From an uncultured Bdellovibrionales bacterium (GTDB taxonomy: Bacteria; Bdellovibrionota_C; UBA2361; CAZKXU01): DNA of 18,907 bases. The notes below the pieces were generated by a model. The model had not been told where the DNA came from and made no database searches. It saw nothing but the letters and a program-made list of their open reading frames with translations. A program made the position numbers and the translations under genes. The stretch is taken from positions 1 through 18,907 of the forward strand of contig CAZKXU010000070.1 in NCBI GenBank assembly GCA_964556665.1, written 5' to 3'. This document shows, in pieces, positions 1-18,907 of this stretch (position 1 is the first letter of the stretch; each line of letters begins with the position of its first letter).

Positions 1-43
1 TATTTGGAGGAGCACTAGTACACTGTAACATAAATCTTTCCCC

Positions 44-118
44 CTGGGACCGCGGGCATCTTGCCCGCAAACGAATTGGTTGCCACTACGTAGCGGGCTG
101 GACGACCGCGGTCCCAGT
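44..118. repeat. Copy 1 of a ~75-nt GC-rich palindromic repeat element (12-bp perfect terminal inverted repeats CTGGGACCGCGG / CCGCGGTCCCAG; internal hairpins)
   Basis: Bases 44-55 pair perfectly with 106-117. The inner hairpin GCGGGCA-tct-TGCCCGC spans 52-68. A second hairpin GCGG...CCGC spans 93-109. The element lies just downstream of the stop of the minus-strand binding-protein gene. It is about 75% identical to the copy at 10751-10825. Confidence 0.85.
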
Positions 119-147
119 GGATCTGAAAAATCTAATGATCGAGTGCG

Positions 148-1215
148 CTACTGCTCTTTCCGCAGCTCTCTTACTTTAATCTCCCTTCCGCTAGCAGAGT
201 CTCTGCCACCAAAGCTAAACGTGCCGGAGTAACCTGAATAGTTCTCTGTTGTTGCTATGCAGCTGCGCACGGCCGCAGGTGTATTATCTTTAAGTATACA
301 GCTTAAAAGGAGCATCGTTTCATCATAGGTAACAGAGGCGCTAGCAGCCTCTGGCGCATGCCCGTATTCTGATCTGAATTTCCTATAAAACCTCTGCTTT
401 GCTTCCTCTTCAAAATGTGGGTAGGAATAGAATATTTTAAAGCCGTATTTTAATATATCCTCTGGGGGATCGAGATAGATAACTAGATCATCACTAAGAA
501 TAAGCGGCCGATCTTGGCGTAGCTCTGACCACTGTTTAAGAAAATCCTGGATCTGGCCGGTATTGTCTAGCAGCATTAAGATGCCGTCCATTTCAGGCGG
601 AGATTTAGTAATGAGAGCGCGCAAGTCGCGCTCTTTGAGTTGAACAAAATGGGTGAATATCGGCTTAGTCTTGGAGGTTGATACAAAGTTTTCTACAAGC
701 AGATCATAATACGGTGTAATAGCAGAGAAAATTCCGATTTTTTTGAAATTACGATTATTACCTTCCACAGCTAGAGCTTCACTGTAGCTCTTATCATCGA
801 ACCAAGCTGTAAAATTATAGTTCCAATCTTTAGAGAGAAACTCCCTGCCGTTATAGGACGGAGAAAGGCAGACAATTTTTCTACTCTCACAGAGCGGCAT
901 AATTACCGCATATGTCTCCCAGGTCGGGCCGATTATATATTGAAACTTATCTATCGCAGTTAGTTTTTGAAAGGCACTGACCGCTTGTTTGTTTTGGAAG
1001 GTGCTATCCTCGATCTTGAAATGCACCTTTATATCAGGATGCGCTGCTTCAAAATCCTTTATCGCGAGGAGGAAAGCCTCTCTCTCAGCTTTGCCCCAAA
1101 TCACCCCGCCGCCGCTCAAGTCGAATATTGCACCTATTCCAATAGTTTTAGGTGCCTGTGCAAAGCATGCCGATGCAGTGAAAATTAGCAAAAACAGGAG
1201 TGTCCAGCGCATCAA
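148..1215 (-). CDS. Periplasmic substrate-binding protein, type-1 PBP fold (LivJ/LivK branched-chain amino-acid-binding family-like), Sec signal peptide
   Basis: 355-aa ORF. The N-terminus MMRWTLLFLLIFTASACFA|QAP is a canonical signal peptide. IGIGAIFDLSGGGVIWGKAEREAFLLAIKDF...YIIGPTWETYAVIMPLCESRKIVCLSPS follows the N-lobe pattern of Leu/Ile/Val-binding proteins. The start codon lies 24 bp downstream of the kup stop, so co-transcription is likely. No ABC permease or ATPase partner is in the window. Confidence 0.75.
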   Translation of the reverse strand: MMRWTLLFLLIFTASACFAQAPKTIGIGAIFDLSGGGVIWGKAEREAFLLAIKDFEAAHPDIKVHFKIEDSTFQNKQAVSAFQKLTAIDKFQYIIGPTWETYAVIMPLCESRKIVCLSPSYNGREFLSKDWNYNFTAWFDDKSYSEALAVEGNNRNFKKIGIFSAITPYYDLLVENFVSTSKTKPIFTHFVQLKERDLRALITKSPPEMDGILMLLDNTGQIQDFLKQWSELRQDRPLILSDDLVIYLDPPEDILKYGFKIFYSYPHFEEEAKQRFYRKFRSEYGHAPEAASASVTYDETMLLLSCILKDNTPAAVRSCIATTENYSGYSGTFSFGGRDSASGREIKVRELRKEQ

Positions 1216-1239
1216 AAGTTCTAGCGTAGTTATAAAACT

Positions 1240-3138: not shown

Positions 3139-3198
3139 ATTTTGCTAAGCAGTATGCCAGAAGCTTTGACCTCTGAATATACTGAGAAAACTCTATAT

Positions 3199-3312
3199 AG
3201 ACCTTATGACGCACCCCTCCAAGAAGTAAACTAATAATCGTAGGTTGCTTGTTGTTCCAATGAATAACAAGCCGAGCTACATTTACTAATGGAGGAATGC
3301 GTCATAAGGTCT
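3199..3312 (-). repeat. 114-bp nested inverted-repeat element / long RNA hairpin (22-bp arms AGACCTTATGACGCACCCCTCC ... GGAGGAATGCGTCATAAGGTCT) between small secreted gene stop and kup start
   Basis: Arms 3199-3220 and 3291-3312 are reverse complements at 20 of 22 positions. The two non-matching positions are C:A on the plus strand but G:U wobbles on the minus-strand transcript, giving a continuous 22-bp RNA stem in the transcribed orientation. An inner 7-bp hairpin GCTTGTT...AACAAGC lies at 3246-3271. The right arm overlaps the stop codon of the 3311 gene by 2 nt. Confidence 0.7.
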
Positions 3313-3703
3313 AGAGCACAGTAAGTTCCACTGTTCCTGATCCTGTATCAACTGTTAGTCCAGATAGACCAGGCTCAAGTGTGCAGGTGTGCGGAGCAGG
3401 GCAGATTAGGTTGCCATTGATCATAACAAAAAAATCTTTCCCTAAGAAAAAGATAGTAACTACGAAGCTTTCGCTGATTAATCCAGCATATGCGGGGCTT
3501 GCGTTAGTTACAGTCATATCGATGCTAGTTACACCACTTAAGCCTCCTCCTCCTGATCCAAGGCTGCGTCCACCGCTGCTTTGTGCAAAGACATTTGCTT
3601 GGGAGGATAAATAGTATGCGGTGAAAAAAAGCATTGAAAAGAGAGCCACTAATCTCTTTGTGATGATGCGAGGTCTTGAAGCTCTTGGAAGAAATGGAAG
3701 CAT
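3311..3703 (-). CDS. Hypothetical small secreted protein, Gly/Ser-rich N-terminal region after the signal peptide
   Basis: 130-aa ORF. It has a signal-peptide-like N-terminus (...LVALFSMLFFTAYYLSSQANVFA|QSSGG), followed by the low-complexity stretch GGRSLGSGGGGLSG and a C-terminal segment rich in predicted beta strands. I recognise no homology. It is divergent from the 3814 gene across an AT-rich spacer. Confidence 0.45.
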   Translation of the reverse strand: MLPFLPRASRPRIITKRLVALFSMLFFTAYYLSSQANVFAQSSGGRSLGSGGGGLSGVTSIDMTVTNASPAYAGLISESFVVTIFFLGKDFFVMINGNLICPAPHTCTLEPGLSGLTVDTGSGTVELTVL

Positions 3704-3813
3704 ACTGTGTTGAAGGGTAGCAGATAGAATAATTCAAGTCAAAGTTAAATTAAACAAATATATTGATTTAACTATATGTTGCTCTATATACTTGTCAGAG
3801 GAGGTGTTTGTTC
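3704..3813. promoter_or_regulatory. AT-rich divergent promoter region between the small secreted gene (-) and the 419-aa secreted gene (+); candidate sigma70-like TTGATT(3763-3768)-16nt-TATATA(3785-3790) and strong SD GAGGAGG(3798-3804)
   Basis: The intergenic spacer is AT-rich. Hexamers resembling -35/-10 lie with a 16-nt spacer. A perfect Shine-Dalgarno sits 9 nt upstream of the ATG at 3814. The promoter assignment is tentative because the predicted TSS would fall almost on the SD. Confidence 0.25.
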
Positions 3814-5073
3814 ATGGTCAAAGCTGATCACGCTAGAGGAGTAGCTGTTGCTGCAATTGCGGCTCTGTTTTCAGCTCCACATGCCGTGGCACTCCCACCA
3901 ATGCCATTGAAGATGCCTAGGCTAGAAGAGTCATTGGCAGTCGAGGGCGACAGCCAGGCAGAAAAACTCTCTATCTTTTCAGCTCTCCCGTTGGGTGTTC
4001 GGCAAGCCATAATGGCACGAGTGGAGGAGCGCCTCGATCAGCTAGATGATCCATTTTTTATAGCTATGACGAGATTTACAGGATCAGCTCAAGTAGGTGA
4101 TTTGCCGCTATATGCTCCACAGGTGGTGGTGCAGTATCTAGAAGGTGGCAATAAGAGAGATTTTGTCGGTACCTCCGCAAATGGCGAATCAGATCAAACT
4201 ACAGGCGCCCTTCCGTTTGCACTTGATGTTAAATATGTAGATCGCGGTCTTTATAGAACGGAACTTACTAGTCAGGACCTCTATCCCAATCTTCAATTTA
4301 GAGCTGCACTAAACGGATATCATTCTAATACAGCGTTGTGGCTTGCCACCTTGCTCAAAGAGCTAGATAACGGCCAAGACTTTTTTGCCGGAGATCAGCT
4401 AAAAAGGGAGAATGGATTTTATCTAGACTTTAGTAAGCTTCTCGATACTCGTCTTCCAGGAAAGAGTTGTACTATAGATATAGGGCTTCGTACCGCTGAT
4501 TATACTGATACGACCTGGCTAGATCTGGCATTTGAACCGTTCAAGGCAATAGTTGAGAAGCATTTTGGCGAGGATGGTAAGTACCCCACTGGAAAAATCT
4601 GGTCGGGACAACAGGATAAGCGTTTTATATTACTACAGGTATTTCTTTCATATAGAATTTTTAGGCAGGAACGAGAGGCCTCTGCTTTAGCTTGGGTATT
4701 AAACCCTGATGATTCTTTTCCCGCATCTTATAAAAGTTTTGAAAAAAGATTTGGACCTGGTACGCCTAAGGAGAAATTAAGCTGGAGAGAGGAGGCTATT
4801 GTTTGGTTAGGCGATATGCCTGATTTCTTTCGTCAGATAGATGAGACGAAGACTGCGCTTATTAGAGCGCCTGCAACTCCACCGAGTGGGGGAATAGTAG
4901 CTGGCTCACAACCAGATTTTTATCGAGCGGCTGCTGCCTCTCTTGCGCAACGAGGAGTTAAGGACCATCCAGACACATTGGATACGCTAGCTGTGTTGAA
5001 TGAACGATGGCGAATGCGTAATACTTTAGTAGCATTGATCGCCACTGAGGAGCTTGCTAATGCAACCAGATAA
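3814..5073 (+). CDS. Hypothetical secreted protein (419 aa), function unknown; translationally coupled to downstream sulfatase
   Basis: The ORF runs from a TTG at 3808. The ATG at 3814 is preferred because GAGGAGG ends 9 nt upstream. The N-terminus MVKADHARGVAVAAIAALFSAPHAVA|LPP looks like a Sec signal peptide. I recognise no catalytic motifs; it lacks the RGGS and C-terminal Cys motifs of the formylglycine-generating enzyme and has no radical-SAM CxxxCxxC. The stop at 5071-5073 lies 10 nt before the sulfatase ATG, within the sulfatase SD. Confidence 0.6.
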   Translation: MVKADHARGVAVAAIAALFSAPHAVALPPMPLKMPRLEESLAVEGDSQAEKLSIFSALPLGVRQAIMARVEERLDQLDDPFFIAMTRFTGSAQVGDLPLYAPQVVVQYLEGGNKRDFVGTSANGESDQTTGALPFALDVKYVDRGLYRTELTSQDLYPNLQFRAALNGYHSNTALWLATLLKELDNGQDFFAGDQLKRENGFYLDFSKLLDTRLPGKSCTIDIGLRTADYTDTTWLDLAFEPFKAIVEKHFGEDGKYPTGKIWSGQQDKRFILLQVFLSYRIFRQEREASALAWVLNPDDSFPASYKSFEKRFGPGTPKEKLSWREEAIVWLGDMPDFFRQIDETKTALIRAPATPPSGGIVAGSQPDFYRAAAASLAQRGVKDHPDTLDTLAVLNERWRMRNTLVALIATEELANATR

Positions 5074-5083
5074 GGGAAGTGGA

Positions 5084-6391
5084 ATGAATCTTGTTATGAA
5101 GTTAGCAGCTATTTTTTTCTTTTTAATTTCAACAGCTGCAGCTGCTCCTAATATCCTGGTTATTGTGACAGACGATCACCGGCTTGATCAGATCGACCCA
5201 TTTATGCCGACTGTTCGAAATGAGATCTTTAATAAGGGAGTTGAGTTTTCACGCGCTTATGTTACTACTCCAGCCTGTTGCCCGAGCCGTTCTAGTATCT
5301 TTACCGGACTTTATGCCAAGAACCACGGTGTATTGACAAACCGTGGTGACCTAAAACTACCAACAATATTTAAGTACCTCAAGGATGATTATTATCAGGG
5401 AATTATCGGGAAGTATTTAAATACATGGAATGGAGAGCCTCGGCCAGAGTTTGATTATTGGGTAGCTTTTGACAAGGGGTCTACACGTTATCTTAACCCA
5501 CGGTTAAATATTAATGGAACTTGGAGTGATGTGCCGGGGTATATTACTAATATTTTTACTGTACATGCTCTGAAATTTCTTGAGCATGCCAGGGAGCAGT
5601 CCAAGCCGTTTTTTCTTACGTTAACCTATAACGCACCACACGATTCGGCTACGCCTGATCCAGATGTTGAAAGGGAATTCGATAATATGCCGTTTTCATT
5701 TCCGTTGGCATTCAATAGAAGTTATCATGGTCAGGTATCCTGGCTTAGAGATTACCCAAAGAGGAAAGATATTCAAATACAAAAGATTATGGAGAGGACA
5801 CGTGATCGTTGGGAATGTTTAGGTTCAGTTGATCGGTCTATTATGAACGTTTTATCTTCTCTTGAACAGAACAATCAATTAGCTAATACCATAATCTTTT
5901 TTATCTCTGATAACGGATTATTTAATGGCGAGCACAAATTAACACAGAAGGACTCGCCTTATGAGCCAGCCGTACATGTGCCTTTTGCTATACGTTATGA
6001 TGCTATCATCAGTACACCGCGTAAAAGCGATAGCATTGTAGCTAACATTGATATTGCACCAACTATCTTTGATGTTTTAAGTAAGCCAGCACCGCGTCGT
6101 TTCGACGGTCTCTCACTTAAGAATCTTTTAAGTACTGAGACTCCTGTACGAGATCATCTCTTTTTAGAAGGGTATAGAGATGCAGGTTTAAAAAGAAAGT
6201 TCCGCGCACTAGTAGAAAAAAAATATAAATTTATAGAGTATTGGCCTTACGATGGTAATTCCCGTAATTGGGAGCTATACGACCTAGATCAAGATAGTGG
6301 AGAGACAAAAAATCTTGTTAGAGTGCCGACATTTAGAGAGACAGTTACTAAGTTTAATAAAAAAATCCTGGATTTTTACTCTGAGAATTGA
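5084..6391 (+). CDS. Cys-type sulfatase (formylglycine-dependent; arylsulfatase / N-acetylglucosamine-6-sulfatase-like), secreted
   Basis: The sulfatase signature TTPACCPSRSSIFTGLY contains the C-x-P-x-R core whose Cys is converted to formylglycine. NILVIVTDDHR is the metal-binding N-terminus typical of the family. The signal peptide is MNLVMKLAAIFFFLISTAAAA|PN. The start is placed at the ATG at 5084 (RBS GGGAAGTGGA) rather than the upstream in-frame M at 5054, which would overlap the previous gene. Confidence 0.85.
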   Translation: MNLVMKLAAIFFFLISTAAAAPNILVIVTDDHRLDQIDPFMPTVRNEIFNKGVEFSRAYVTTPACCPSRSSIFTGLYAKNHGVLTNRGDLKLPTIFKYLKDDYYQGIIGKYLNTWNGEPRPEFDYWVAFDKGSTRYLNPRLNINGTWSDVPGYITNIFTVHALKFLEHAREQSKPFFLTLTYNAPHDSATPDPDVEREFDNMPFSFPLAFNRSYHGQVSWLRDYPKRKDIQIQKIMERTRDRWECLGSVDRSIMNVLSSLEQNNQLANTIIFFISDNGLFNGEHKLTQKDSPYEPAVHVPFAIRYDAIISTPRKSDSIVANIDIAPTIFDVLSKPAPRRFDGLSLKNLLSTETPVRDHLFLEGYRDAGLKRKFRALVEKKYKFIEYWPYDGNSRNWELYDLDQDSGETKNLVRVPTFRETVTKFNKKILDFYSEN

Positions 6392-6478
6392 GGCTTATAA
6401 AGCAAGTGCTTATCTCTACAGAGCTTGGTAGTATGTTCTTATTGGCATTTCCCCTAATAATTGCTAAAACCTAGGGTC

Positions 6479-9400
6479 ATGACCGCAAAGCTTAAAAAGC
6501 TTAACAAAATCCTAATTGCGAACCGTGGTGAGATTGCGATTCGAATCTTTCGGGCTGCCACTGAGCTTAAGATTCGAACAGTGGCGATGTATACCTACGA
6601 GGATCGTTACTCCCTCCATCGCTATAAAGCGGATGAATCATATCAAATTGGAAGAGACGATGAGCCACTACGTCCTTATATAGATATAGATCAAGTTTTA
6701 AAACTTGCGAAAGAGCAGGGGGTTGACGCTATCCACCCAGGTTACGGGTTTATCTCAGAAAATGTAAATCTTGCACGTGCCTGTGAGGAGCAAGGAATTA
6801 TATTTGTAGGTCCTCGTCCAGATGTGATGGATAAGCTAGGAGATAAGATCCGAGCTAAGAAGATTGCACGGCAAGTCGGGGTTCCGGTGATCGAGGATAG
6901 CCGTGAGCCGTTAAAAAATATTGATATCGCCAAGAAAGAAGCAGCGCGGATTACTTACCCGGTTATTATAAAGGCAAGTGCCGGAGGCGGCGGGCGCGGA
7001 ATGCGTGTGGTGCGAAACGATCGTGAGCTTGAGAGCTGTTTTGATGAGGCGCGCAGTGAGGCATTAAAGGCTTTTGGTGATGATACTGTTTTCTTTGAGA
7101 AATATATAGAGGATCCAAAGCATATAGAGGTGCAGATACTCGGAGATAACTATGGCAATATTGTGCACCTCTTTGAGCGTGACTGCTCAGTGCAGAGACG
7201 ATTCCAAAAGGTAGTAGAGGTTGCGCCTGCACCAACGCTTTCTCCTCAGGTAAGAAACGAGCTGCATCAATATGCTTTAAAGATTGCGCATCATGTAAAG
7301 TATAACAATGCCGGCACCGTAGAGTTTCTTGTTGATCCGCAGGAGCGAGTATATTTTATCGAGGTAAATCCGCGTATCCAGGTCGAGCATACCGTAACAG
7401 AAGAGATTACAGGTATCGACATAGTAAGATCACAGATTCTTATTGCACGTGGCCACGCTCTGCATGATGCGGGCATTTTTCTGCGCACGCAGGAAGATGT
7501 GACGTATCATGGCTATGCGATTCAGTGCCGTATCACAACTGAAGATCCGCAGAACAATTTCAAGCCTGACTATGGGCGCATAGTTGCTTATAGAAGTCCG
7601 GGTGGTTTCGGGATTAGACTTGATGGAGGTAGCGCGTATCCAGGGGTTAATGTCTCACCATTTTTTGATTCTCTGCTTGTGAAAGTTACGGCCAAAGGCC
7701 GAACACTAAGAGGGGCCTGTGAGCGCATCAAGAGAGCATTAGAGGAGTTTAGAATACGTGGTGTTAAAACTAATATAGCTTTTCTTGAGAATGTGATTAC
7801 CCATCCTGTATTTATCGATGGCCGAGCGACTGTGCGGTTTATTGATAATCATGCTGAGCTGTTTCAGTTTGTCAGACGCCGCGATCGAGCAAGCAAGGTT
7901 CTTAGATATTTGGGAGATCTAATTGTAAATGGTAACCCCGATGTAAAGACTTTCGATAGAGAGCGGGAATTTAGAAGAGAGGTAGTTCCTGAGTGCGATA
8001 AGTTTGCGCCGTATCCAGACGGGAGTAAGCAGCGTCTTTCGCAGCTTGGACGGGATGGATTTGTAAAATGGCTAAAAGAGACACGCACAATTCAATATAC
8101 AGATACTACCTTTAGGGATGCACATCAATCACTGCTAGCAACACGTGTGCGTACGATTGATATGTTGCGCGTTGCTGAGAGCTTTGCCAAGAAGCACCCT
8201 GAAGTCTTTTCGATGGAGGTTTGGGGAGGCGCAACCTTTGATGTGGCCCTGCGCTTCCTACATGAATGTCCGTGGGAGCGGCTCCGTCTGTTACGAGAAG
8301 CAATGCCCAATATCCTTCTACAGATGCTATTACGCGGCTCTAATGCAGTTGGCTATACCAGTTATCCTGACAATCTTGTCTCTATGTTTGTTGAGAAGTC
8401 TTGGGAGGCTGGCGTTGATATTTTCCGCATCTTCGATTCTATGAATAATCTAGAGGAGATGAAGGTAAGTATTAAGGCTGTGCGTGATCGTACCGGTGGA
8501 CTGGCCGAAGGTTGTATCTGTTATACGGGAGACCTTTTAGATCCAACTCGTAGGAAATACGGCTTACAGTACTATATTGATCTTGCTCGCCGCCTTGAGG
8601 ATCAGGGTATTCATATTCTTGGCATAAAGGATATGGCTGGATTGTTAAAGCCTTATGCAGCTGAGCAGCTCATTGCGGAGCTTAGGAATGTACTGACAGT
8701 GCCAATCCATCTGCACACGCATGATACCTCATCTTTACAAACTGCAACCTATCTCAAGGCTGTCGAAGCAGGTGTTGACGTAGTGGATGTTGCTTTAGCT
8801 TCAATGTCAGGTCTTACCTCGCAGCCTAACTTTAACTCGGTGGTGGCGATGTTGAAGGGACATGAGCGGGAGTTAAAACTTGATTTACAGTCACTTAATC
8901 AGTTCTCCAACTATTGGGAGGCGGTGCGGGAGTTTTACTATCCTTTTGAATCAGGGCTTAAAAGCGGAACAGCAGAGGTGTTTGAGCATGAGATTCCGGG
9001 AGGGCAATACTCTAACCTTCGCCCGCAGGCACGTGCATTAGGTTTAGAAGATGAATTTGAAAAGATAAAAAGAAACTTTGCAGGTGTAAACAAGCTTTTT
9101 GGTGATATTGTAAAAGTTACACCTTCTTCGAAAGTAGTAGGGGATTTCGCACTGTATCTTACCGCTAATAATATTGATCCAGAGGATGTATTGGCTAAGG
9201 CAGATACGATCTCATTTCCTGAATCTGTTAAGAGCATGTTTAAAGGAGAGATCGGAGTTCCGCCAGAGGGATTTCCGGCGGAGTTGCAGTCTGCGATTCT
9301 AAAAGGGGAGAAGCCCCTCCAGGGTCGTTCTAATGAACATCTCCCGCCTGTAGATTTTGATGCGGAGTATGAGGCTTTTTTAAAGAAGTTTGACAGTAGT

Positions 9401-9928
9401 CTTACCTTTCTGGATTACCTCTCCTATAAAATGTATCCGAAGGTGTATGAGGATTATTATTACCATTGGGAAACATACGGAAGAGTCGATCCGATTCCAA
9501 CACCGGTATTTTTCTACGGATTGAAGCTTAACGAGGAGGTTTTAGTACCAATCGATCAAGGTAAAACACTTATAGTGCGGTTTTTAAACGTTAGTGAGCC
9601 TGATGAGAGCGGCATGCGCACCATCTTCTTCAAGTTAAATGGAGAGAACCGAGGTATTGAAGTTCGGGATCGTTCTTATAAAGTGACAAAAGTTTCGAAT
9701 GTCAAGGCCACAAAGCCAAACGAGATTGGATCCCCTTTGCAGGGTAGGCTCTCAAAGCTGTTAGTTAAAGAGCAGGTCGCGGTCTCGAAGAACCAACCTC
9801 TTTTCGTTATCGAGGCCATGAAGATGGAGAGCACTATTCGTGCCAGCTTTGAGGGAAAGATCAGGAGATTGCATCTTAAAGAGGGGTCGTTGGTAGAGCA
9901 GGACGATCTTGTAGTTGAAATGGAATAG
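6479..9928 (+). CDS. pyc: Pyruvate carboxylase, single-chain (biotin carboxylase + carboxyltransferase + biotin carboxyl carrier domains)
   Basis: 1149 aa from the ATG at 6479; the ORF track begins at an upstream in-frame TTG at 6461. The N-terminal biotin carboxylase domain has KILIANRGEIAIRIFRA and ATP-grasp motifs. The central carboxyltransferase domain has the carbamylated-lysine motif GIKDMAGLLKP and metal ligands HLHTHDT. The C-terminal biotinyl domain has EAMKME. The length is typical of single-chain PYC. Confidence 0.93.
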   Translation: MTAKLKKLNKILIANRGEIAIRIFRAATELKIRTVAMYTYEDRYSLHRYKADESYQIGRDDEPLRPYIDIDQVLKLAKEQGVDAIHPGYGFISENVNLARACEEQGIIFVGPRPDVMDKLGDKIRAKKIARQVGVPVIEDSREPLKNIDIAKKEAARITYPVIIKASAGGGGRGMRVVRNDRELESCFDEARSEALKAFGDDTVFFEKYIEDPKHIEVQILGDNYGNIVHLFERDCSVQRRFQKVVEVAPAPTLSPQVRNELHQYALKIAHHVKYNNAGTVEFLVDPQERVYFIEVNPRIQVEHTVTEEITGIDIVRSQILIARGHALHDAGIFLRTQEDVTYHGYAIQCRITTEDPQNNFKPDYGRIVAYRSPGGFGIRLDGGSAYPGVNVSPFFDSLLVKVTAKGRTLRGACERIKRALEEFRIRGVKTNIAFLENVITHPVFIDGRATVRFIDNHAELFQFVRRRDRASKVLRYLGDLIVNGNPDVKTFDREREFRREVVPECDKFAPYPDGSKQRLSQLGRDGFVKWLKETRTIQYTDTTFRDAHQSLLATRVRTIDMLRVAESFAKKHPEVFSMEVWGGATFDVALRFLHECPWERLRLLREAMPNILLQMLLRGSNAVGYTSYPDNLVSMFVEKSWEAGVDIFRIFDSMNNLEEMKVSIKAVRDRTGGLAEGCICYTGDLLDPTRRKYGLQYYIDLARRLEDQGIHILGIKDMAGLLKPYAAEQLIAELRNVLTVPIHLHTHDTSSLQTATYLKAVEAGVDVVDVALASMSGLTSQPNFNSVVAMLKGHERELKLDLQSLNQFSNYWEAVREFYYPFESGLKSGTAEVFEHEIPGGQYSNLRPQARALGLEDEFEKIKRNFAGVNKLFGDIVKVTPSSKVVGDFALYLTANNIDPEDVLAKADTISFPESVKSMFKGEIGVPPEGFPAELQSAILKGEKPLQGRSNEHLPPVDFDAEYEAFLKKFDSSLTFLDYLSYKMYPKVYEDYYYHWETYGRVDPIPTPVFFYGLKLNEEVLVPIDQGKTLIVRFLNVSEPDESGMRTIFFKLNGENRGIEVRDRSYKVTKVSNVKATKPNEIGSPLQGRLSKLLVKEQVAVSKNQPLFVIEAMKMESTIRASFEGKIRRLHLKEGSLVEQDDLVVEME

Positions 9929-9966
9929 AGGCAAGATAGTTACCTTAATTTATCGGAGAATACGCT

Positions 9967-10719
9967 ATGCCAGGAATTGTAATACTATTAGTCGGAGCAT
10001 TTGCTTTATTGCAGATGTCGTTCTATGTGCTCAAAGAATATGAACGTGGAGTAATTTTTCGTTTCGGACGCCTTGGACCAATGAAAGGGCCTGGGCCTCG
10101 ATTGATTATACCTTTTGTAGATCGTCTTGTACGGGTTGATCAGCGTACCATTACGATGGACGTTCCGAGTCAGGATGTAATAACCAAGGACAACGTTTCT
10201 ATTAAAGTTAATGCCGTACTCTATTTCCGCGTTATGGAGCCTGATAAAGCAATTACACAGGTTGAAAACTATCTATATGCAACGAGTCAGCTTGCCCAAA
10301 CAACCTTGAGGAGTGTCTGCGGTGAGGCTGAGCTTGATGATCTGCTTTCGAAGCGCGACCAGATTAATCTTCGTATGGCTGAAATCCTTGATCACCAAAC
10401 CGCACCATGGGGAGTAAAGGTTTCAAATGTTGAGGTCAAACACATCGACCTGCCGCAGGAGATGCAGCGCGCTATGGCTAAACAGGCAGAAGCGGAACGT
10501 GAAAGACGGGCCAAGATCATTCAGGCGGAAGGAGAATACCAAGCAGCGGAGAAGCTAACTGCCGCAGCTGGCACTATGTCCTCTCAGGCGGGTGCGATGC
10601 AATTGCGCTATCTTGAAACATTGCGACATATCGCTTCAGAACATAATTCAACCATACTTTTCCCAATACCGATGGATCTTTTGGAGGCCTTTAGAGGGAG
10701 GTTGAAGGGAGGGGGATAG
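9967..10719 (+). CDS. SPFH/band-7 family membrane protein (stomatin-like, QmcA/YbbK-type)
   Basis: 250 aa. The N-terminal TM helix is followed by [14 protein letters not shown]...[18 protein letters not shown]...ETLR, typical of the prokaryotic stomatin/SPFH domain. The C-terminal coiled-coil segment is Ala/Glu-rich. No NfeD partner is adjacent. Confidence 0.85.
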
Positions 10720-10750
10720 ATGGTATAGTGAGTTCTTAAAATATTAGTCC

Positions 10751-10825
10751 CTGGGAACGCGGGCTTCCAGTCCGCAAACGAAATTGCAGGCACTAAGTAG
10801 CGAGCTAGAAGCTCGCGGTCCCAGT
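10751..10825. repeat. Copy 2 of the ~75-nt palindromic repeat element
   Basis: It has the same length (75 nt) and the same termini CTGGGAaCGCGG...CGCGGTCCCAG, with one A:G mismatch in the outer stem. Inner hairpins are GCGGGCt-tcc-aGtCCGC and GCGAGC-tagaa-GCTCGC. It lies in the 134-bp spacer between the SPFH gene and queA. Confidence 0.85.
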
Positions 10826-10853
10826 ACCCATGTGCTAGTTTTTCCCGAACTTA

Positions 10854-11912
10854 ATGAGCAAATACGATCTGTTTACCTACAATTTGCCGAACGATCGTAT
10901 CGCCGATCGCCCGATCTATCCGCCGGAAGCTGCTAAACTCCTCGTTATTAACCGTTCGGCTAAGCAGCTCATAGATCTACAATTTACAGAGATTACTCAA
11001 TTTCTTAAGCCGAGCGATCTGATTGTGTTCAATGACACCAAGGTCTTACCGTCTCGTCTTTTCGGCGTTGGGGACCGCGGCGCCAAATTAGAGCTTTTAC
11101 TTCTACGCGCTAAGCCTGAGATTGAAAACGGGTTTGTATGCTTGGGGAGGCCGTTAAAGAAATTTCGGCCGAATACGGCTATTGTATTTGGACCGGAGCT
11201 AGAGGCCCAGATACTTGCACGTATATCTGAGAGTGAGGTGCTAGTTAAGTTTAATGTACGATCAGATGGGCTTTCATTAAATACACTGCTGAACAGGTAT
11301 GGCAGTATGCCGATTCCACCTTATATTAGAGGCGGCATAGCTGATCAGAGAGACTTTACTGATTATCAGAGTGTCTTTGCGAGAGAGGAGGGATCGATTG
11401 CAGCTCCGACAGCAAGCCTGCATTTCTCTAATGCCTTGATTGATAGTATTAGAGTGACTGGGTGTGAGATTGGGTATCTGACACTACATCTTAGCACCGC
11501 CAGTTTTTTTAGTTTGTATCAAGGTAACTCTCTAGAGGAGTCGGAGATTCGTCCGCCGGGGGAAGAATACGGAAGAGTCAGTACTATGTTGGCTCAGAAA
11601 ATTGCAAATAAGAAGAGTTCAGGTGGTAAAGTACTGGCGGTAGGGACCTCTGTTGTGCGAGCACTTGAGTCGTTTGCTGCAAACACCAGTTATAGACTTG
11701 ATGAATTTAATCCAACAACTTTATTTATTACACCAGGGTATCAATTTAAGATAGTTGATAAACTTGTTACAAACTTTCACCAACCAGGCACCACTCATCT
11801 TAGTCTGGTAGAGGCTATTTTGGGGCGAGAGTTGTTAGAAAATGCTTATAGACACGCCTTGCATAATTCATACCGATTTCTTAGTTATGGTGACGGGATG
11901 GCTGTGCTATAA
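10854..11912 (+). CDS. queA: S-adenosylmethionine:tRNA ribosyltransferase-isomerase (queuosine biosynthesis)
   Basis: 352 aa. The N-terminus LFTYNLPNDRIADRPIYPPEAAKLL and the overall length match QueA. It sits immediately upstream of tgt, as in the conserved queA-tgt-yajC-secDF operon. Confidence 0.92.
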   Translation: MSKYDLFTYNLPNDRIADRPIYPPEAAKLLVINRSAKQLIDLQFTEITQFLKPSDLIVFNDTKVLPSRLFGVGDRGAKLELLLLRAKPEIENGFVCLGRPLKKFRPNTAIVFGPELEAQILARISESEVLVKFNVRSDGLSLNTLLNRYGSMPIPPYIRGGIADQRDFTDYQSVFAREEGSIAAPTASLHFSNALIDSIRVTGCEIGYLTLHLSTASFFSLYQGNSLEESEIRPPGEEYGRVSTMLAQKIANKKSSGGKVLAVGTSVVRALESFAANTSYRLDEFNPTTLFITPGYQFKIVDKLVTNFHQPGTTHLSLVEAILGRELLENAYRHALHNSYRFLSYGDGMAVL

Positions 11913-13440
<1,528 letters not shown>

Positions 13441-13458
13441 ATATTTTATGGGAAAATT

Positions 13459-14988
13459 ATGAGTGAGAGTTTACGTAATCGAATAATAATATTTTTAGTA
13501 GTTTTAGTCGTAGCAGTATTGTTCATACTGCCGACGTTTTTCCGTGATCAGCTAGGGGCAGGTTGGATCTCCCGTCCTATATCATTAGGACTAGACCTGA
13601 GTGGAGGAGCGCACCTTGTATATGAAGTTAAAGCTGCAGAGGCTGTAAAGAGCAGGTTGCAGACACTAGCTTTTTCTGTGCGTGCAAAATTGAGGGATGA
13701 AAAGGTTGCACTGCTGCGCTCTGCTGTTAATGCAGAAAATCAGCTGCAGCTTGTTCTACTCAGTGAGCGTAGTATCGATCAGGCTAAAAGTATAATTGAA
13801 AAGGAGTTCAGGGAGCTAACCTATATTGACAAGGTGGCTGAAAGCAGTCAGGCCGCACTTCTCTACGGTATATCTGAAATTCAGGCTAAGCGAGTAGAGC
13901 AGGAGGCTATTAACCAGGCAGTTGAGACACTGCGTAACCGTGTAGATCAGTTCGGAGTAGCAGAGCCTCTAATTCAGAAAGTTGGCACGAGCCGGATTCT
14001 TCTTCAGATGCCAGGTATTCAGGATATTGAGTCGGTTAAAAAAGTTGTAGGCTCTGTGGCTAAACTTGAATTTCGTCTAGTGCCACAATCCGGGGCCGGA
14101 TCCAATACAGTTAGTTTAAAAAATAGAGAAGGAGCACAGGTAGTTGTTGAAGACCAAGCATTAATGACAGGTGATGCAGTTGATGATGCGCGTGTGAACA
14201 TGTATCAAGGACAGGTTGATGTAACGCTGAAGCTTACTACCGATGGGACCAAGACCTTTAGAAGAATTACTTCTGAAAATGTAGGACGACAATTGGCAAT
14301 CATACTTGATAATATTGTTTACTCATCCCCTGTGATACGTGAGGCTATACCGGGGGGGAGCGCAAATATATCAGGTGGATTTACTATGGTTGAAGCGCGG
14401 CAGCTAGCTGTCGTACTGCGAGCCGGTGCATTGCCTGCTCCGCTGGAAGTTATGGAGGAGCGTACGGTTGGGCCAACATTAGGCAAGGAGTCGATAGAAA
14501 AGGGTGTTTTGGCGATGCTGATCGGGTTTGCTGCGATTATCACTTTTATGGTGATTTATTATAAAAAATCCGGCGCGGTAGCCGTCGCTACGCTGGCAGT
14601 AAACGTAGTTCTTGTGATCGCCTGCCTTTCGGCCTTCGGTGCTACTCTGACATTACCTGGACTGGCAGGTGTAGCTCTAACCATTGGCATGGCGGTTGAT
14701 TCTAATGTAATTATATTCGAGCGCATACGAGAAGAGATAAGAAACGGAGCTACCCGCGATGTTGCAGTATCTGCAGGATTTGATAAGGCACTAACGGCGA
14801 TCCTGGATTCGAATATTACAACTCTGCTCTCAGGATTAATTTTATTATATTTTGGAACAGGACCTATACGCGGATTTGCCGTAACTCTATGTATCGGTAT
14901 TGTTACCACCATTTATTGTGCAACTTTCTGCTCTAAGTTGGGGTTTGATCTTTTCCCGATGCGCAGTGACAAAACACTTTCAATTTAA
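13459..14988 (+). CDS. secD: Protein translocase subunit SecD
   Basis: 509 aa. The N-terminal TM helix is followed by a large periplasmic domain and a C-terminal 6-TM bundle (…LDSNITTLLSGLILLYFGTGPIRGFAVTL…), typical of SecD. Its position after yajC matches the conserved operon. Confidence 0.93.
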   Translation: MSESLRNRIIIFLVVLVVAVLFILPTFFRDQLGAGWISRPISLGLDLSGGAHLVYEVKAAEAVKSRLQTLAFSVRAKLRDEKVALLRSAVNAENQLQLVLLSERSIDQAKSIIEKEFRELTYIDKVAESSQAALLYGISEIQAKRVEQEAINQAVETLRNRVDQFGVAEPLIQKVGTSRILLQMPGIQDIESVKKVVGSVAKLEFRLVPQSGAGSNTVSLKNREGAQVVVEDQALMTGDAVDDARVNMYQGQVDVTLKLTTDGTKTFRRITSENVGRQLAIILDNIVYSSPVIREAIPGGSANISGGFTMVEARQLAVVLRAGALPAPLEVMEERTVGPTLGKESIEKGVLAMLIGFAAIITFMVIYYKKSGAVAVATLAVNVVLVIACLSAFGATLTLPGLAGVALTIGMAVDSNVIIFERIREEIRNGATRDVAVSAGFDKALTAILDSNITTLLSGLILLYFGTGPIRGFAVTLCIGIVTTIYCATFCSKLGFDLFPMRSDKTLSI

Positions 14989-15004
14989 TAATGGAATCTT
15001 TTGT

Positions 15005-15928
15005 ATGGAACTAATCTCTAAAAAATTAAACTTCGATTTTATAGGCAATTGCTGGAAGGGGATCTCAATTTCCTTAGCCCTATTAGTAATGAGCTTTTAT
15101 ATCTGGTTCGCAAAAGGTGAATCAAAATACGGCATCGATTTTAAGGGTGGACACGAGCTTGTAGTAAAAATTACGGGTGCTCCTGGTAGTGAAAAGATTC
15201 GAGAGATGTTAGTGCAGTCCGGAGTTGATGATATTATTGTGCAGTCTTTTGAAATTGGAAGTGATGAATATTCTATTCGCTTAAGCGTAAACGCCGGAGA
15301 TAGTAAGACGGTGCGTGAAAAAATTGATGGGGGTCTCAAAAAGGCTTTTGATGCTAACTATCAAGGGGTAATCAAGAGCGACTTCGTCGGCCCTACTATA
15401 GGAGAAGAGCTAAGAACTAGAGCTTTGTATGCCTGTCTTTTTGCCTTAATAGGAATTCTTATTTATGTTGCCTACCGTTTCGAAATGGCCTTTGCGCTAG
15501 GTGCTGTAGTGGCTCTATTCCATGACGTAATCGTGGCGATGGGTGTGTACCTGATGTGTGGGCATACTATTAATGTTGGCACTGTAGCTGCTGCGCTTAC
15601 TATAGTGGGCTATTCGGTCAACGACACCATTGTCATCTTTGATCGAGTACGGGAGGAGATCTTAAAACATGATAAATTTGATCTAGCTGCTTTGATGAAC
15701 GAGAGTATTAATGCGACTTTGTCACGCACTATTATCACAAGCATGCTCACGATTTTTTCAGTATTAGCGCTTCTAATTTTTGGCGGCGGAGCAATAGCTG
15801 ATCTAAGTGTTTACCTCCTAGCTGGTATGGTGGCAGGATGCTACTCCACCATTTTTATCGCCTCTCCGGTTGCGTTATGGTGGAATAAGATCAGAAGTCC
15901 TGAGATTGCGACGGCAGCACGAGCGTAG
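15005..15928 (+). CDS. secF: Protein translocase subunit SecF
   Basis: 307 aa from ATG 15005 (MELISKKLNFDFIG...). The ORF track begins at an upstream in-frame ATG at 14900, which overlaps secD. The start is inferred here at the first ATG after the secD stop. The C-terminal region (SVNDTIVIFDRVRE, membrane bundle) is typical of SecF. Confidence 0.88.
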   Translation: MELISKKLNFDFIGNCWKGISISLALLVMSFYIWFAKGESKYGIDFKGGHELVVKITGAPGSEKIREMLVQSGVDDIIVQSFEIGSDEYSIRLSVNAGDSKTVREKIDGGLKKAFDANYQGVIKSDFVGPTIGEELRTRALYACLFALIGILIYVAYRFEMAFALGAVVALFHDVIVAMGVYLMCGHTINVGTVAAALTIVGYSVNDTIVIFDRVREEILKHDKFDLAALMNESINATLSRTIITSMLTIFSVLALLIFGGGAIADLSVYLLAGMVAGCYSTIFIASPVALWWNKIRSPEIATAARA

Positions 15929-16137
15929 AATTGCGCTCAGTAGATGAGATACTTTGAAATCTATTGATGCAGATCTGCTTTCTCGCTCCGGAGTTTATGA
16001 AAATGCCGGCTAGTGGTCAGACCATATAATATTTCGTGACATTAATAGGCTGAAATCATTCATATTATCTGAGTAATATCAAATTGCTAGACACTGCTAC
16101 AAATTTCACTAGAACAAGCTATGAAATGTTTGACAAG

Positions 16138-16146
16138 TGCTATAAT
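16138..16146 (+). promoter_or_regulatory. Extended -10 promoter element TGcTATAAT upstream of the AAA+ ATPase gene
   Basis: TGCTATAAT at 16138-16146 matches the extended -10 consensus TGnTATAAT, 20 bp upstream of the GTG start. A perfect TTGACA (16130-16135) sits only 5 nt upstream, too close to be its -35. No good -35 lies at 17±1 spacing, so the call rests on the extended -10. Confidence 0.4.
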
Positions 16147-16165
16147 TTACGATAAAGAGTAATAA

Positions 16166-17317
16166 GTGATTTTTAAACGAAAATTCATAAATACTTTACT
16201 GAGTAGGCTCAAGGAGCCCGCTCCTTTAATTCAGGCAATACTAGGTCCACGCCAAGTTGGAAAAACTACGGCGATTCGACAACTGTTAGCCGATATTCAG
16301 ATCCCATTTCATTACTGCTCAGCCGATCTCTCTATTTCATTACCCAGCAGTTGGATAATAGAACAGTGGCAAGAAGCTCTCTTAAAGGGAGAGGGCTCAC
16401 TCTTAGTCATTGATGAAATTCAGAAAATTAGCAACTGGTCTGAGCTCCTAAAGAAACTTTGGGATGATAGTATTTCAAATAAAAGAATAAAGGTGATCAT
16501 TTTAGGTTCCAGCTCATTAAAAATACAAAAGGGACTTACAGAGAGTCTAACTGGAAGGTTTGAACTGATAAGAGTTTTTCACTGGAGCTTCTCAGAATAC
16601 AAAGAGGCATTTGGCTGTGATCTAAACAGCTATCTCCAGTATGGTGGCTACCCAGGATCATTCGAGTATATAAATGATTATTCACGGTGGCACTCTTACA
16701 TTAAGGATTCAGTAATTGAGACAGTAATTGGCCAAGATATATTGAGCTTAACTTCAGTTAGTAATCCAGCTCTATTTCGTCAGGCCTTCGAAATCTTATC
16801 GTCATATCCAGCACAAGAAATAAGCTATAATAAGCTGCTGGGCCAACTTCAGGATCGAGGTAACACAGATTTAGTGAAAAAGTATATTGAATTATATGAA
16901 GGAGCTTTTCTATTTAGAGCATTAGAAAAGTATAGCAACAAAGCTACCCTAAGAAAGAGCTCTACTCCAAAGATTCTGCCTCTCTGTCCATGTCTAGCAA
17001 CAGTACATCAAGGTAAAGAGGCTTTAGCTGACAATGAATTTAGAGGACGATTATTTGAGCTAGCTGTTGGCGCAGATCTAAATAGGTTACAAGGCGAGCT
17101 TTACTACTGGAGAGAGGGAAGTAATGAGGTAGATTACATCTATAAGCTTGGCAAGACAGTTTGGTCGATTGAGGTTAAATCAGGGCGGAAAAAGAGTGTA
17201 CGGGGCTTAGAAAAGTTTACTGATAAATTTCCCAAAGCGCGGATGGTGATCGTTAATTCGGATAATTATGAAAGTTTTTCTGCTGATCCTGAAAACTTTC
17301 TTGAGCGCCTGAGATAA
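16166..17317 (+). CDS. AAA+ superfamily ATPase with C-terminal DUF4143 (PD-(D/E)xK nuclease-like) domain (COG1373-type)
   Basis: 383 aa from a GTG start (AAGAG RBS upstream). Walker A is GPRQVGKTT; Walker B is LLVIDEIQ. The C-terminal ...EVDYIYKLGKTVWSIEVKSG fits a D...E-x-K restriction-endonuclease-like motif characteristic of DUF4143. The gene is visibly more AT-rich than the upstream operon. Confidence 0.8.
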   Translation: MIFKRKFINTLLSRLKEPAPLIQAILGPRQVGKTTAIRQLLADIQIPFHYCSADLSISLPSSWIIEQWQEALLKGEGSLLVIDEIQKISNWSELLKKLWDDSISNKRIKVIILGSSSLKIQKGLTESLTGRFELIRVFHWSFSEYKEAFGCDLNSYLQYGGYPGSFEYINDYSRWHSYIKDSVIETVIGQDILSLTSVSNPALFRQAFEILSSYPAQEISYNKLLGQLQDRGNTDLVKKYIELYEGAFLFRALEKYSNKATLRKSSTPKILPLCPCLATVHQGKEALADNEFRGRLFELAVGADLNRLQGELYYWREGSNEVDYIYKLGKTVWSIEVKSGRKKSVRGLEKFTDKFPKARMVIVNSDNYESFSADPENFLERLR

Positions 17318-17380
17318 ATCTTAGAGAGCGTAAAATTATTACCAGTTATTCAGTCCTTGCACTGAAAACTAAGTTTCCTA

Positions 17381-17433
17381 CTGGGACCGCGGGCTTCCAG
17401 CCCGCTTGATCGAGGAATTTGCCAAGACATAGT
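17381..17433. repeat. Copy 3 (truncated) of the palindromic repeat element: 5' arm + hairpin A + central segment only
   Basis: CTGGGACCGCGGGCTTCCAGCCCGC (17381-17405) matches the 5' half of copies 1 and 2. The following GAATTTGCCA matches the central GAATTGGTTGCCA / GAAATTGCAGGCA. The 3' terminal arm is absent. It lies 64 bp downstream of the ATPase gene stop. Confidence 0.7.
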
Positions 17434-17436
17434 TGA

Positions 17437-17478
17437 CCCCAATAAATTGTCCCCAATAAATTGTCCCCAATAAATTGT
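17437..17478. repeat. Tandem direct repeat, 3 x 14 bp (CCCCAATAAATTGT)
   Basis: Three perfect head-to-tail copies lie at 17437-17450, 17451-17464 and 17465-17478, immediately after the truncated palindromic element and before a long AT-rich spacer. Confidence 0.9.
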
Positions 17479-17607
17479 CTCACTGACATTGCGAACCTCC
17501 TACTAAAAATTGTAGATTTGAAATCAAATAAGTTGGTGACTAAAAACTCAATTTATATAGAATCTTAGCGCCAAGCATTAAGCCAGTTAGCGTGCTATTA
17601 TTGCCTT

Positions 17608-17632
17608 AAAATATGCTTTCAAAGCATATTTT
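17608..17632. repeat. 25-bp perfect palindrome AAAATATGCTTT-C-AAAGCATATTTT (imperfectly extendable to ~35 bp)
   Basis: The 12-bp arms are exact reverse complements around a central C. The stem is AT-rich and followed by TCTTAAG. It could be an operator-type protein-binding site or a weak terminator hairpin. Confidence 0.8.
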
Positions 17633-17758
17633 TCTTAAGAACTCTTAGATATTGGCAACAAGATTTGACCTTATTCCCTGAAATTATTAATATTTTCTAC
17701 TGTTTTGAAATCAGCTTAACTAGAATGACCATTAGCAATGTCTCTGTGAGAATTTTTT

Positions 17759-17782
17759 TGGGAATTTTATGGGGAATTTTAT
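17759..17782. repeat. Tandem direct repeat, 2 x 12 bp (TGGGAATTTTAT GGGGAATTTTAT)
   Basis: Two adjacent near-identical 12-mers (11/12) lie about 115 bp upstream of the 228-aa orphan gene start. Confidence 0.8.
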
Positions 17783-17895
17783 GAGGCTCGCAAGGGTCCC
17801 GTTTAATTTTGATGCTTATTAGAAACTGTTGACTATAAATAATTAGTTATGGGAGATCGTTTGAAATAATCGCTTCCCCTAAGCTTTGTCCCTCT

Positions 17896-18582
17896 ATGGC
17901 GAAATTTACAGCAAGATATGAGATCGTGGCGACAAAGAGTATAGTTGCCTCAGAACTGGCTAGAATGCAAAAGGCATGCTTTGATGAAGAAATACTACAA
18001 TGCTATAAGGACAACAATGAAGAGCAATTATATTGGGAGCAGTTTGACTGTCTCAAGAACAAGGTAAAGGGATACCGGACTTTCAATAAGATAATTAGTT
18101 TGGGGCATTCCGATGTAAAAAGTTTTGCAAAAAAGCTAACGGAAAAGCTGACGCAGTTATTCAATACAATTGGTGCCACTCACTTAATTATAATCTCTGA
18201 TTTAAAAAATGATTTTTTTGGAAATAGAGATAATAAGTTCAAACCATTAAAACAGGCGTATAATAAACTTGAAAAAATTGTTGGTGACAAAACATTTAAA
18301 GAGGCCTTTTCTGTCGATATAGATGATTTAAAAGACTTCATAGAAATTATCTTTTGGATAACGCGTTGCGATCCAAGCGTGCCTGGTCTTTACCTATTTG
18401 ACGATGGAGAGCAAATTCAAATTAGATTGTGCAAATATGGAAACATACATTTGATACAATATAAAAAAGTTGTTTTGACAGAGGGCAAATTGAAAGACTT
18501 GGGTTGGACAATTCTTAAAAAAAAGTGTTTTGACAACTTTACTAGTACCGGTAGGATTGAAGGAAGGCAGCTAAAAGTATAA
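17896..18582 (+). CDS. Hypothetical protein (228 aa), orphan, AT-rich, Lys-rich, no recognisable motifs
   Basis: The long ORF sits in an AT-rich region. No convincing SD is present (CCCTCT upstream). No signal peptide or TM segment is apparent. Codon composition is unlike the neighbouring sec operon. Confidence 0.5.
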   Translation: MAKFTARYEIVATKSIVASELARMQKACFDEEILQCYKDNNEEQLYWEQFDCLKNKVKGYRTFNKIISLGHSDVKSFAKKLTEKLTQLFNTIGATHLIIISDLKNDFFGNRDNKFKPLKQAYNKLEKIVGDKTFKEAFSVDIDDLKDFIEIIFWITRCDPSVPGLYLFDDGEQIQIRLCKYGNIHLIQYKKVVLTEGKLKDLGWTILKKKCFDNFTSTGRIEGRQLKV

Positions 18583-18659
18583 TATTTTCTCTCACCTTTC
18601 CCGAAGTCTCTGTGAAAAATTTATGTTGTGTTTCTTAGTTGCTCCGCCAGCCGTTTCAG

Positions 18660-18907
18660 TTAGTTCCTAGACTTATGTGTTATCCCCTTTCCAAATACCT
18701 CAAATTCTTCCAAAGTAGCAGTCGCATATATTTCTTCAAAATCACTACCTACGGATGCACGCTCACGGAACTTTTTAAAAGCGTGTGCAGCACTCTTACT
18801 GATAGTTAGACATCCACAACCGTCTCCAATATCCGCACAAACCCCAAGCTCAGATGTATCCGTCCTCTCCCACCCAGGTGTCGATTTGCAATAAATTGAA
18901 CAGCGGT
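18660..18907 (-). CDS. Partial CDS (C-terminal ~82 codons; start beyond window end), hypothetical
   Basis: On the minus strand, an open frame runs from the window edge to a TAA at 18660-18662 (…CADIGDGCGCLTISKSAAHAFKKFRERASVGSDFEEIYATATLEEFEVFGKGITHKSRN*). It is convergent with the 228-aa gene. The ORF track omits it because no start codon is inside the window. Confidence 0.3.
   Translation of the reverse strand, partial: RCSIYCKSTPGWERTDTSELGVCADIGDGCGCLTISKSAAHAFKKFRERASVGSDFEEIYATATLEEFEVFGKGITHKSRN

Follow-up and report, generated by a model that had tools for sequence, protein, structure and literature searches.

An AT-rich accessory region downstream of secDF in an Oligoflexia-like contig probably comprises three unrelated single genes

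An accessory region 3' of secF

The window analyzed here is a single contig of 18,907 bp (CAZKXU010000070.1) from an uncultured Bdellovibrionales bacterium, and this study concerns its 3-kb tail (positions 15929-18907), which follows secF. We put a probability of about 0.62 on the reading that the tail is an accessory region 3' of the secDF operon, made up of three unrelated single genes of independent arrival or origin rather than of one system. These are a gene for an ATPase-nuclease of 383 amino acids (aa; gene 1), a gene for a 228-aa protein (gene 2), and a convergent partial open reading frame (ORF; gene 3), with positions given in Table 1. An initial annotation had described the tail from its sequence as an accessory, possibly horizontally acquired or defense-type locus, and as a place to look for an undescribed system. 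Its sequence observations were confirmed in part, with corrections to the orphan status of gene 2, the density of repeats and the codon usage, and its interpretation was partly supported.

That the tail is accessory was borne out by presence and absence in relatives. We compared the locus with two relatives, L045 and L046 (Oligoflexia bacterium, GCA_019694515.1), whose SecF proteins were 58-60% identical to that of the window. The order NfeD-Band_7-queA-tgt-yajC-secD-secF was common to both. Downstream of secF both carried a convergent gene for a membrane methyltransferase of 255-263 aa, followed by PCMT and LysM/Peptidase_M23 genes, and none of the three tail genes was present in either. Because the genes downstream of secF differ in these relatives, the tail is a variable or accessory region, with secF as its left border; as the two are distant, the comparison is limited in strength. 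The closest named SecF relatives were metagenome-assembled genomes (MAGs) labeled Oligoflexia, Bdellovibrionales or 'Deltaproteobacteria', all at no more than 63% identity, and judging by these matches the host backbone looks Oligoflexia/Bdellovibrionota-like.

The shift in composition after secF that had been seen by eye was real. GC was 0.374 in the tail vs 0.443 in positions 1-15928, and lay below every upstream 3-kb window (minimum 0.417; standard deviation 0.011). The gene for the 228-aa protein was AT- and lysine-rich as first described, with a GC of 0.342 and 13.1% lysine. The tail was just 70% coding, since its three ORFs are set apart by AT-rich spacers of 237, 578 and 77 bp; positions 1-15928 were 95% coding. 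The drop in GC is due to amino-acid composition, expressed at the first and second codon positions (GC1 and GC2), and to the 30% of non-coding sequence. GC at third codon positions (GC3) was 0.344 in the ATPase gene and 0.349 in the 228-aa gene (core genes, 0.327-0.452), and an index resembling the codon adaptation index (CAI), built from twelve core genes, gave 0.757 and 0.758, respectively (core-gene range, 0.74-0.82). The tetranucleotide profile and correlation of the tail were not distinct from those of the host either. With GC3, the CAI-like index and tetranucleotides all in the host range, composition alone is no proof of recent foreign origin, and the codon comparison that had been proposed as a check on horizontal acquisition returned no sign of it for either gene.

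Distribution and origin of the 228-aa protein

Gene 2 encodes a member of an unnamed, Bacteroidota-centered protein family. Its description as an orphan was wrong, as we found 143 homologs at 50-67% identity, nearly all of them ~229 aa long and all annotated as 'hypothetical'. When 1.84 billion representative proteins were searched with a profile, 258 clusters were returned (E ≤ 1e-3), most of them of stand-alone proteins with lengths of 200-257 aa. Across 185,579 species genomes, 39 loci were confirmed, in Flavobacteriales, Chitinophagales, Sphingobacteriales, Cytophagales and Bacteroidales, and a single partial match came from Clostridium puniceum. No member of the family turned up in the collections of plasmids, of phages or of IMG/VR. 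One apparent match, P0341 (7462 aa), was discounted, since its score was noise summed over cadherin-like repeats of ~3.6 bits each.

In a neighbor-joining tree, the window protein had a long branch placed among the sequences from Bacteroidota. Orders were intermixed in the family tree, which was incongruent with taxonomy, and this mixing indicates frequent transfer of the ~229-aa family. Nucleotide similarity between the window and Bacteroidota loci ended exactly at the boundaries of the coding sequence (17895-18582). Taken from sequence relationships, gene 2 was probably acquired across phyla, from Bacteroidota. Of the horizontal acquisition that had been suggested for the tail, the part that stood was the nesting of gene 2 in a Bacteroidota family, whereas codon usage gave no sign of recent foreign origin.

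Gene 3, the contig end and the integrity of the assembly

The convergent ORF had a host-core-like GC of 0.436 and would represent a lineage-specific, cysteine-rich ORF. It had no match in Pfam, NCBIfam, PADLOC or PHROG and no relative in a metagenome scan, in keeping with its first description as a partial ORF of no recognizable function, and it bore no relation to the methyltransferase encoded convergently in L045 and L046. An independently assembled ENA contig (L001; 1,614 bp, coverage 2.5x) carried an identical 228-aa gene and equaled window positions 17383-18855 apart from one substitution and one copy fewer (13 bases missing) of the tandemly repeated 14-mer TTGTCCCCAATAAA. The last 52 bases of the window (18856-18907) differed completely from L001; the reverse-strand ORF was open in both, and L001, which supplies ~100 bases beyond 18907, extended it to at least 115 aa. 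The part of the convergent ORF encoded by 18856-18905 is unreliable, and the divergence could be an artifact of the contig end or a real variant. This 1.47-kb segment is thus bounded on either side by an assembly break or branch point, namely the start of L001 at 17383 and its departure from the window at 18856.

These break points bear on an alternative in which assembly or binning produced a chimeric contig, such that the sequence from ~17383 onward came from a low-GC Bacteroidota genome in the sample and was misjoined, with no horizontal transfer at all. Such a misjoin would fit the near confinement of the ~229-aa family to Bacteroidota, the low GC of the 228-aa gene, the breaks at both ends of the L001 segment and the copy-number-variable tandem repeat at the left end of that segment. 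However, the 228-aa gene agrees with the host core in GC3 and codon index, GC is also host-like in the convergent ORF that follows, and the ATPase gene, likewise lower in GC, is on the host's side of the proposed join. Furthermore, of the more than 100 homolog-bearing loci that were fetched (the named ones nearly all Bacteroidota), none was similar to the flanks, and the long branch of the window protein, which is at most 68% identical to any homolog, means that a known donor is absent. We therefore regard a chimeric contig as unlikely.

Conservation, fold and possible role of the 228-aa protein

In an alignment of 41 sequences (A1), the invariant positions were R7, Q25, Y46, D51, K104, D106-F-F-G109, E126, E136, W154, R157-C158-D159 and G182-N183-x-H185, and C179-K180-Y181 were nearly invariant. 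Distant members retained FWxxRC[DN], C-x-Y/F-G-N-[IL]-H and a C-terminal GxIxGR. The conserved R-C-D/N and C-K-Y-G-N-x-H motifs suggest a Cys/His active site or metal site, and the residues kept in distant members point to a small stand-alone enzyme or ligand-binding protein rather than a rapidly evolving binder. One family member, P0273 (439 aa), had an N-terminal extension of ~220 aa that lacked a Pfam match and, within its family domain, 'FWLTHGG' in place of the R-C-D motif.

The 228-aa protein had no significant match in Pfam, NCBIfam, PADLOC or PHROGs, and the ten distant members tested against Pfam had none either. AlphaFold2, run with the family alignment, predicted an alpha/beta core and, at the N terminus, a helical segment, with a predicted local distance difference test score (pLDDT) of 89.6 and a predicted template modeling score (pTM) of 0.84. 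Foldseek searches of this model against PDB and BFVD returned nothing at E ≤ 0.001, and the family profile had no significant match among PDB sequences. Gene 2 would encode a cytoplasmic alpha/beta protein from a mobile family of solo genes in Bacteroidota.

A different role for the same protein would be that of an orphan immunity protein from a polymorphic-toxin system (contact-dependent inhibition, CDI; type VI secretion, T6SS; or similar), neutralizing a toxin of competing or prey Bacteroidota. The solo, patchy and often transferred character of gene 2 is in line with this, as are its cytoplasmic nature (the sequence shows no signal peptide) and the MORN_2 repeat proteins that neighbor its homologs in two loci. 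Against it, no toxin, Rhs, PAAR or secretion gene was found among the neighbors examined and no toxin gene in the window, the protein matched no Pfam Imm family, and conservation was unusually high, with 50-67% identity across orders and invariant Cys, His, Asp and Lys residues. On balance an immunity role is doubtful.

Gene 1 is a member of PDC-S01

The ATPase encoded by gene 1 combines an N-terminal P-loop domain, AAA_14 (PF13173; E 1.2e-25), with a C-terminal nuclease-like domain of the PD-(D/E)xK type, DUF4143 (PF13635; E 1.3e-21, residues 190-340), an architecture that corresponds to COG1373, the 'predicted AAA+ superfamily ATPase'. The fusion of an ATPase with a nuclease, read initially from the motifs GPRQVGKTT, VIDEIQ and EVDYIY...IEVKSG, was upheld. 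In an alignment with 20 homologs, G27-P-R-Q-V-G-K-T-T35, D83-E84, E321, D323 and E336-V-K338 were invariant, and the Walker A, Walker B and D...ExK nuclease motifs are all intact in one polypeptide. PADLOC matched the protein to the PDC-S01 model PDLC04791 (E 6.4e-142), with residues 1-369 of 383 aligned to positions 1-381 of 395 in the profile. The PDCs are 145 candidate families that were found by 'guilt-by-embedding' (bioRxiv 10.1101/2024.01.29.577857). PDC-S01, in which an ATPase is fused to a PD-(D/E)xK domain, is the fourth commonest 'defense' family in prokaryotes and is defined as a single-gene candidate (PMC12988326).

Homologs of gene 1 were very abundant, with 7,944 of 8,000 scored candidates at E ≤ 1e-20. 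The best matches were 57-62% identical and labeled 'ATP-binding protein', and included proteins from Rhodoferax and Rhodocyclaceae; the ATPase profile had no match among PDB sequences. The two closest homologs on long contigs were solo genes, one located between gatCAB and rnhB/serS and the other amid unknown genes. By its sequence, gene 1 is a routine new member of the catalogued candidate defense family PDC-S01. What remained of the proposed defense-type locus was this full-length match, to a family that is itself a candidate and not proven defense. In the recommended PADLOC search, which here covered the locus up to position 18907, the ATPase was the part that was recognized, whereas the 228-aa protein and the partial ORF had no model at E ≤ 1.

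A possible mode of action follows the domain order. Nucleotide binding or hydrolysis by the N-terminal P-loop would gate binding and cleavage of DNA or RNA by the C-terminal PD-(D/E)xK domain, and the product of gene 1 would be a self-sufficient enzyme that targets nucleic acids, with a candidate antiviral role. Transcription of gene 1 would apparently start at a promoter of its own with an extended -10 element, a consensus match located 19 nt 5' of the GTG start codon. As had been noted, the tail carries promoter-like signals of its own, and these (17 sites vs 8.7 ± 3.1 in shuffled sequences, ~2x) exceeded chance, but such an excess is expected of AT-rich DNA.

Three independent genes or one system

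If the tail encoded one system, its genes should recur together. We called ORFs in loci with a member of the ~229-aa family, initially in 41 and then in all 110, and clustered the neighbors. No recurrent neighbor family was found in the 110 loci outside groups of genus-level synteny, one in Algoriphagus and the other made up of four loci, Flavobacterium akiainvivens among them. Pfam annotation of 115 flanking proteins gave a miscellany (AraC, GNAT, OsmC, DinB, bPH, TPR, efflux, RecQ and ComM). With no conserved neighbor in these loci and with solo homologs of the ATPase, the idea of one undescribed multi-gene system was not supported.

Several observations weigh against three independent genes, one of them a transferred gene and another a defense gene. 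Codon usage of genes 1 and 2 is host-like and carries no mark of foreignness. L001 leaves the stretch that joins the ATPase gene to gene 2 (17318-17383) uncovered, and as it does not bridge the two, their physical linkage rests on a single contig. The defense role of PDC-S01 has candidate status only, and the function suggested for gene 2 comes solely from its conservation and predicted fold. Lastly, ATPases of the AAA_14/DUF4143 type adjoin or lie near gene-2 homologs in three other independent loci (L039, L071 and the pair L040/L041), so that a functional link keeps a small probability. These ATPases were 23-25% identical to that of the window, and at such identity the juxtapositions arose independently. 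Within the fetched flanks, 106 of the 110 loci had no such ATPase, giving three independent cases in ~930 kb of flank; that all three were proximal rather than distal had a P of ~0.12 and was not significant. Since the AAA_14/DUF4143 family is so abundant, the three cases are compatible with chance.

Two family members stood directly downstream of genes of other types, a prokaryotic STING-domain protein in a Pedobacter MAG (L023) and an Mrr_cat-nSTAND3 protein of 1170 aa in Chitinophaga varians (L024). In a Cytophagales MAG (L043), a distant member was flanked by a row of same-strand genes for proteins of ~230 aa; its upstream 232-aa and downstream 233-aa genes were considered as hidden paralogs and rejected, as hhalign detected no relationship to the family.

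A broader reading would join several of these strands. The ~229-aa family (FWxTRC[DN] ... CKYGN[IL]H ... GxIxGR) may be a new stand-alone toxin-immunity or antiviral protein, with a fold that lacks a close solved relative, which circulates in the accessory gene pool of Bacteroidota, tends to land beside nucleic-acid-targeting nucleoside triphosphatases (PDC-S01-like, Mrr-nSTAND3, STING), and was captured by a predatory Oligoflexia/Bdellovibrionota lineage from Bacteroidota neighbors or prey. We consider this combination improbable. Least probable of the readings considered is that the ATPase-nuclease and the 228-aa protein (as a regulator, sensor or antidote, for example) form a two-gene module and the tail an undescribed defense system: the ATPases of the same architecture next to gene-2 homologs in L039 and L071 and ~2 kb 5' of them in L040/L041, and the defense-type neighbors in L023 and L024, would speak for it, but 106 of 110 loci lack such an ATPase, order and orientation vary among the cases, three cases (P ~0.12) lie within a plausible background for a multi-copy family, the window ATPase has solo genes as its closest homologs, genes 1 and 2 stand 578 bp apart across a spacer that contains terminator-like hairpins, and PDC-S01 is defined as a single-gene candidate (PMC12988326).

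Read as three independent genes, the locus is not a new system, and its eye-catching ATPase-nuclease is one more copy of the ubiquitous, catalogued PDC-S01. Interest in the locus rests mostly on the uncharacterized ~229-aa family, which is well conserved, has no Pfam model, combines a confident predicted fold lacking close solved relatives with a Cys/His signature, and is worth family curation. Because its backbone is Oligoflexia-like, gene 2 is a candidate for transfer between phyla, from Bacteroidota, and if contiguity is confirmed it would be informative about how genes flow into predatory or associated bacteria.

Repeats, spacers and other features of the window

The description of the tail as studded with repeats was overstated: two short tandem arrays were present, and the remaining repeats were two-copy matches at chance level. 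The 14-mer TTGTCCCCAATAAA occurred three times in the window vs 0.16 expected, with no occurrence outside its array, and because its copy number differs between the window and L001, the spacer is copy-number variable. The 578-bp spacer between genes 1 and 2 folded better than shuffled sequences (z = -2.99). It holds a GC-rich hairpin and a perfect palindrome, AAAATATGCTTTcAAAGCATATTTT, that was paired in both the minimum free energy (MFE) and centroid folds and is terminator- or operator-like in sequence. The 228-aa gene lies between the two copies of a 29-nt direct repeat (17728 and 18594), which was dismissed as chance given that ~4 exact 10-mer repeats are expected per 3 kb. The presence of Shine-Dalgarno sequences was discarded as a marker of foreign origin; it is uninformative, as host genes are inconsistent in this respect. 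Rfam and tRNA scans found no Rfam family and no tRNA in the tail, and no ORF in the tail encodes an integrase or transposase.

The database protein P0126 (307 aa) was 100% identical to SecF starting at the ATG at 15005. The mechanically called secF ORF begins at a TTG at 14900, within secD; the database protein and homologs begin at 15005. Where an NfeD gene precedes Band_7 in L045 and L046, the window instead has the gene for a pyruvate carboxylase of 1155 aa (6461-10719), and Pfam scans found no NfeD domain in the large ORFs of the window.

Table 1. Features of the window and of loci with homologs of gene 2 (for loci labeled L, coordinates are those of the locus)
Feature	Coordinates	Strand	Remarks
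Whole window	1-18907		One contig of 18,907 bp
Genes upstream of the tail	1-15928		Periplasmic-binding protein gene, kup, sulfatase, pyruvate carboxylase, Band_7, queA, tgt, yajC, secD, secF
ORF, 130 aa	3311-3703	-	Divergent from the next; no Pfam match
ORF, 421 aa	3808-5073	+	No Pfam match
secF	15005-15928	+	Pfam SecD_SecF_C, E 3e-64; last gene of the Band7-queA-tgt-yajC-secD-secF block
Extended -10 promoter-like element TGcTATAAT	16138-16146	+	Consensus match only
Shine-Dalgarno-like AAAGAG	16154-16159	+	Read in the sequence, 5' of the ATPase start
Gene 1, 383-aa AAA_14 + DUF4143 protein	16166-17317	+	Pfam, PADLOC
Walker A motif	16244-16270	+	In gene 1
Walker B motif (DE)	16412-16417	+	In gene 1
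D323	17132-17134	+	In gene 1
ExK	17171-17179	+	In gene 1
GC-rich hairpin GCGGGC-TTCCA-GCCCGC	17389-17405	+	72 nt 3' of the ATPase stop
14-bp tandem repeat TTGTCCCCAATAAA, x3.4	17433-17479	+	Tandem Repeats Finder (TRF) score 87
A/T-rich palindrome AAAATATGCTTTcAAAGCATATTTT (perfect 12+12), then TTCTT	17608-17632		Mid-spacer; blastn self-reverse match
12-bp tandem array, x2.8	17750-17783		TRF
Gene 2, 228-aa protein	17896-18582	+	Unnamed Bacteroidota-centered family, no Pfam model; solo gene
Gene 3, cysteine-rich convergent ORF, 3' end	18660-18905	-	81 codons (18663-18905) and stop (18660-18662); runs off the contig
Region of the AAA_14/DUF4143-like ATPase, L039 (Saprospiraceae)	8001-10003		Directly 3' of the gene-2 homolog, same strand
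Region of the AAA_14/DUF4143-like ATPase, L071	8001-10181		Directly 3' of the gene-2 homolog, same strand
Region of the AAA_14/DUF4143-like ATPase, L040 (Cyclobacteriaceae)	4856-8462		~2 kb 5' of the gene-2 homolog
Region of the AAA_14/DUF4143-like ATPase, L041 (Cyclobacteriaceae)	5633-8462		~2 kb 5' of the gene-2 homolog
STING-domain protein gene, L023	4946-5602		Directly 5' of a family member
Mrr_cat-nSTAND3 protein gene, L024	4186-7695		Directly 5' of a family member
Row of genes for ~230-aa proteins, L043	7295-10439		Same strand; flanks a distant family member

Comparison with known systems

Among known proteins, the 228-aa protein may resemble the CdiI immunity proteins (PDB 5t86_I and 6d7y_B), at 10-11% identity, which is a lead only. 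It is about twice their size, has an extra N-terminal helical part, and lacks cdiA, cdiB or any other toxin gene nearby; its family is also far more conserved than typical immunity proteins, and Foldseek does not recover the similarity to CdiI. The ATPase, by comparison, agrees with PDC-S01 in its end-to-end match to PDLC04791, both Pfam domains, intact motifs and single-gene organization, and shows no notable difference, being ~60% identical to thousands of homologs. The tail as a whole differs from genomic islets 3' of conserved operons in lacking an integrase, a transposase, a tRNA and any direct repeat at its flanks that exceeds chance, and in that its codon usage is not atypical. It is like them in its sharp drop in GC, its long AT-rich spacers, the absence of its genes from this position in relatives, and the foreign phylogenetic affinity of one of its genes, gene 2.

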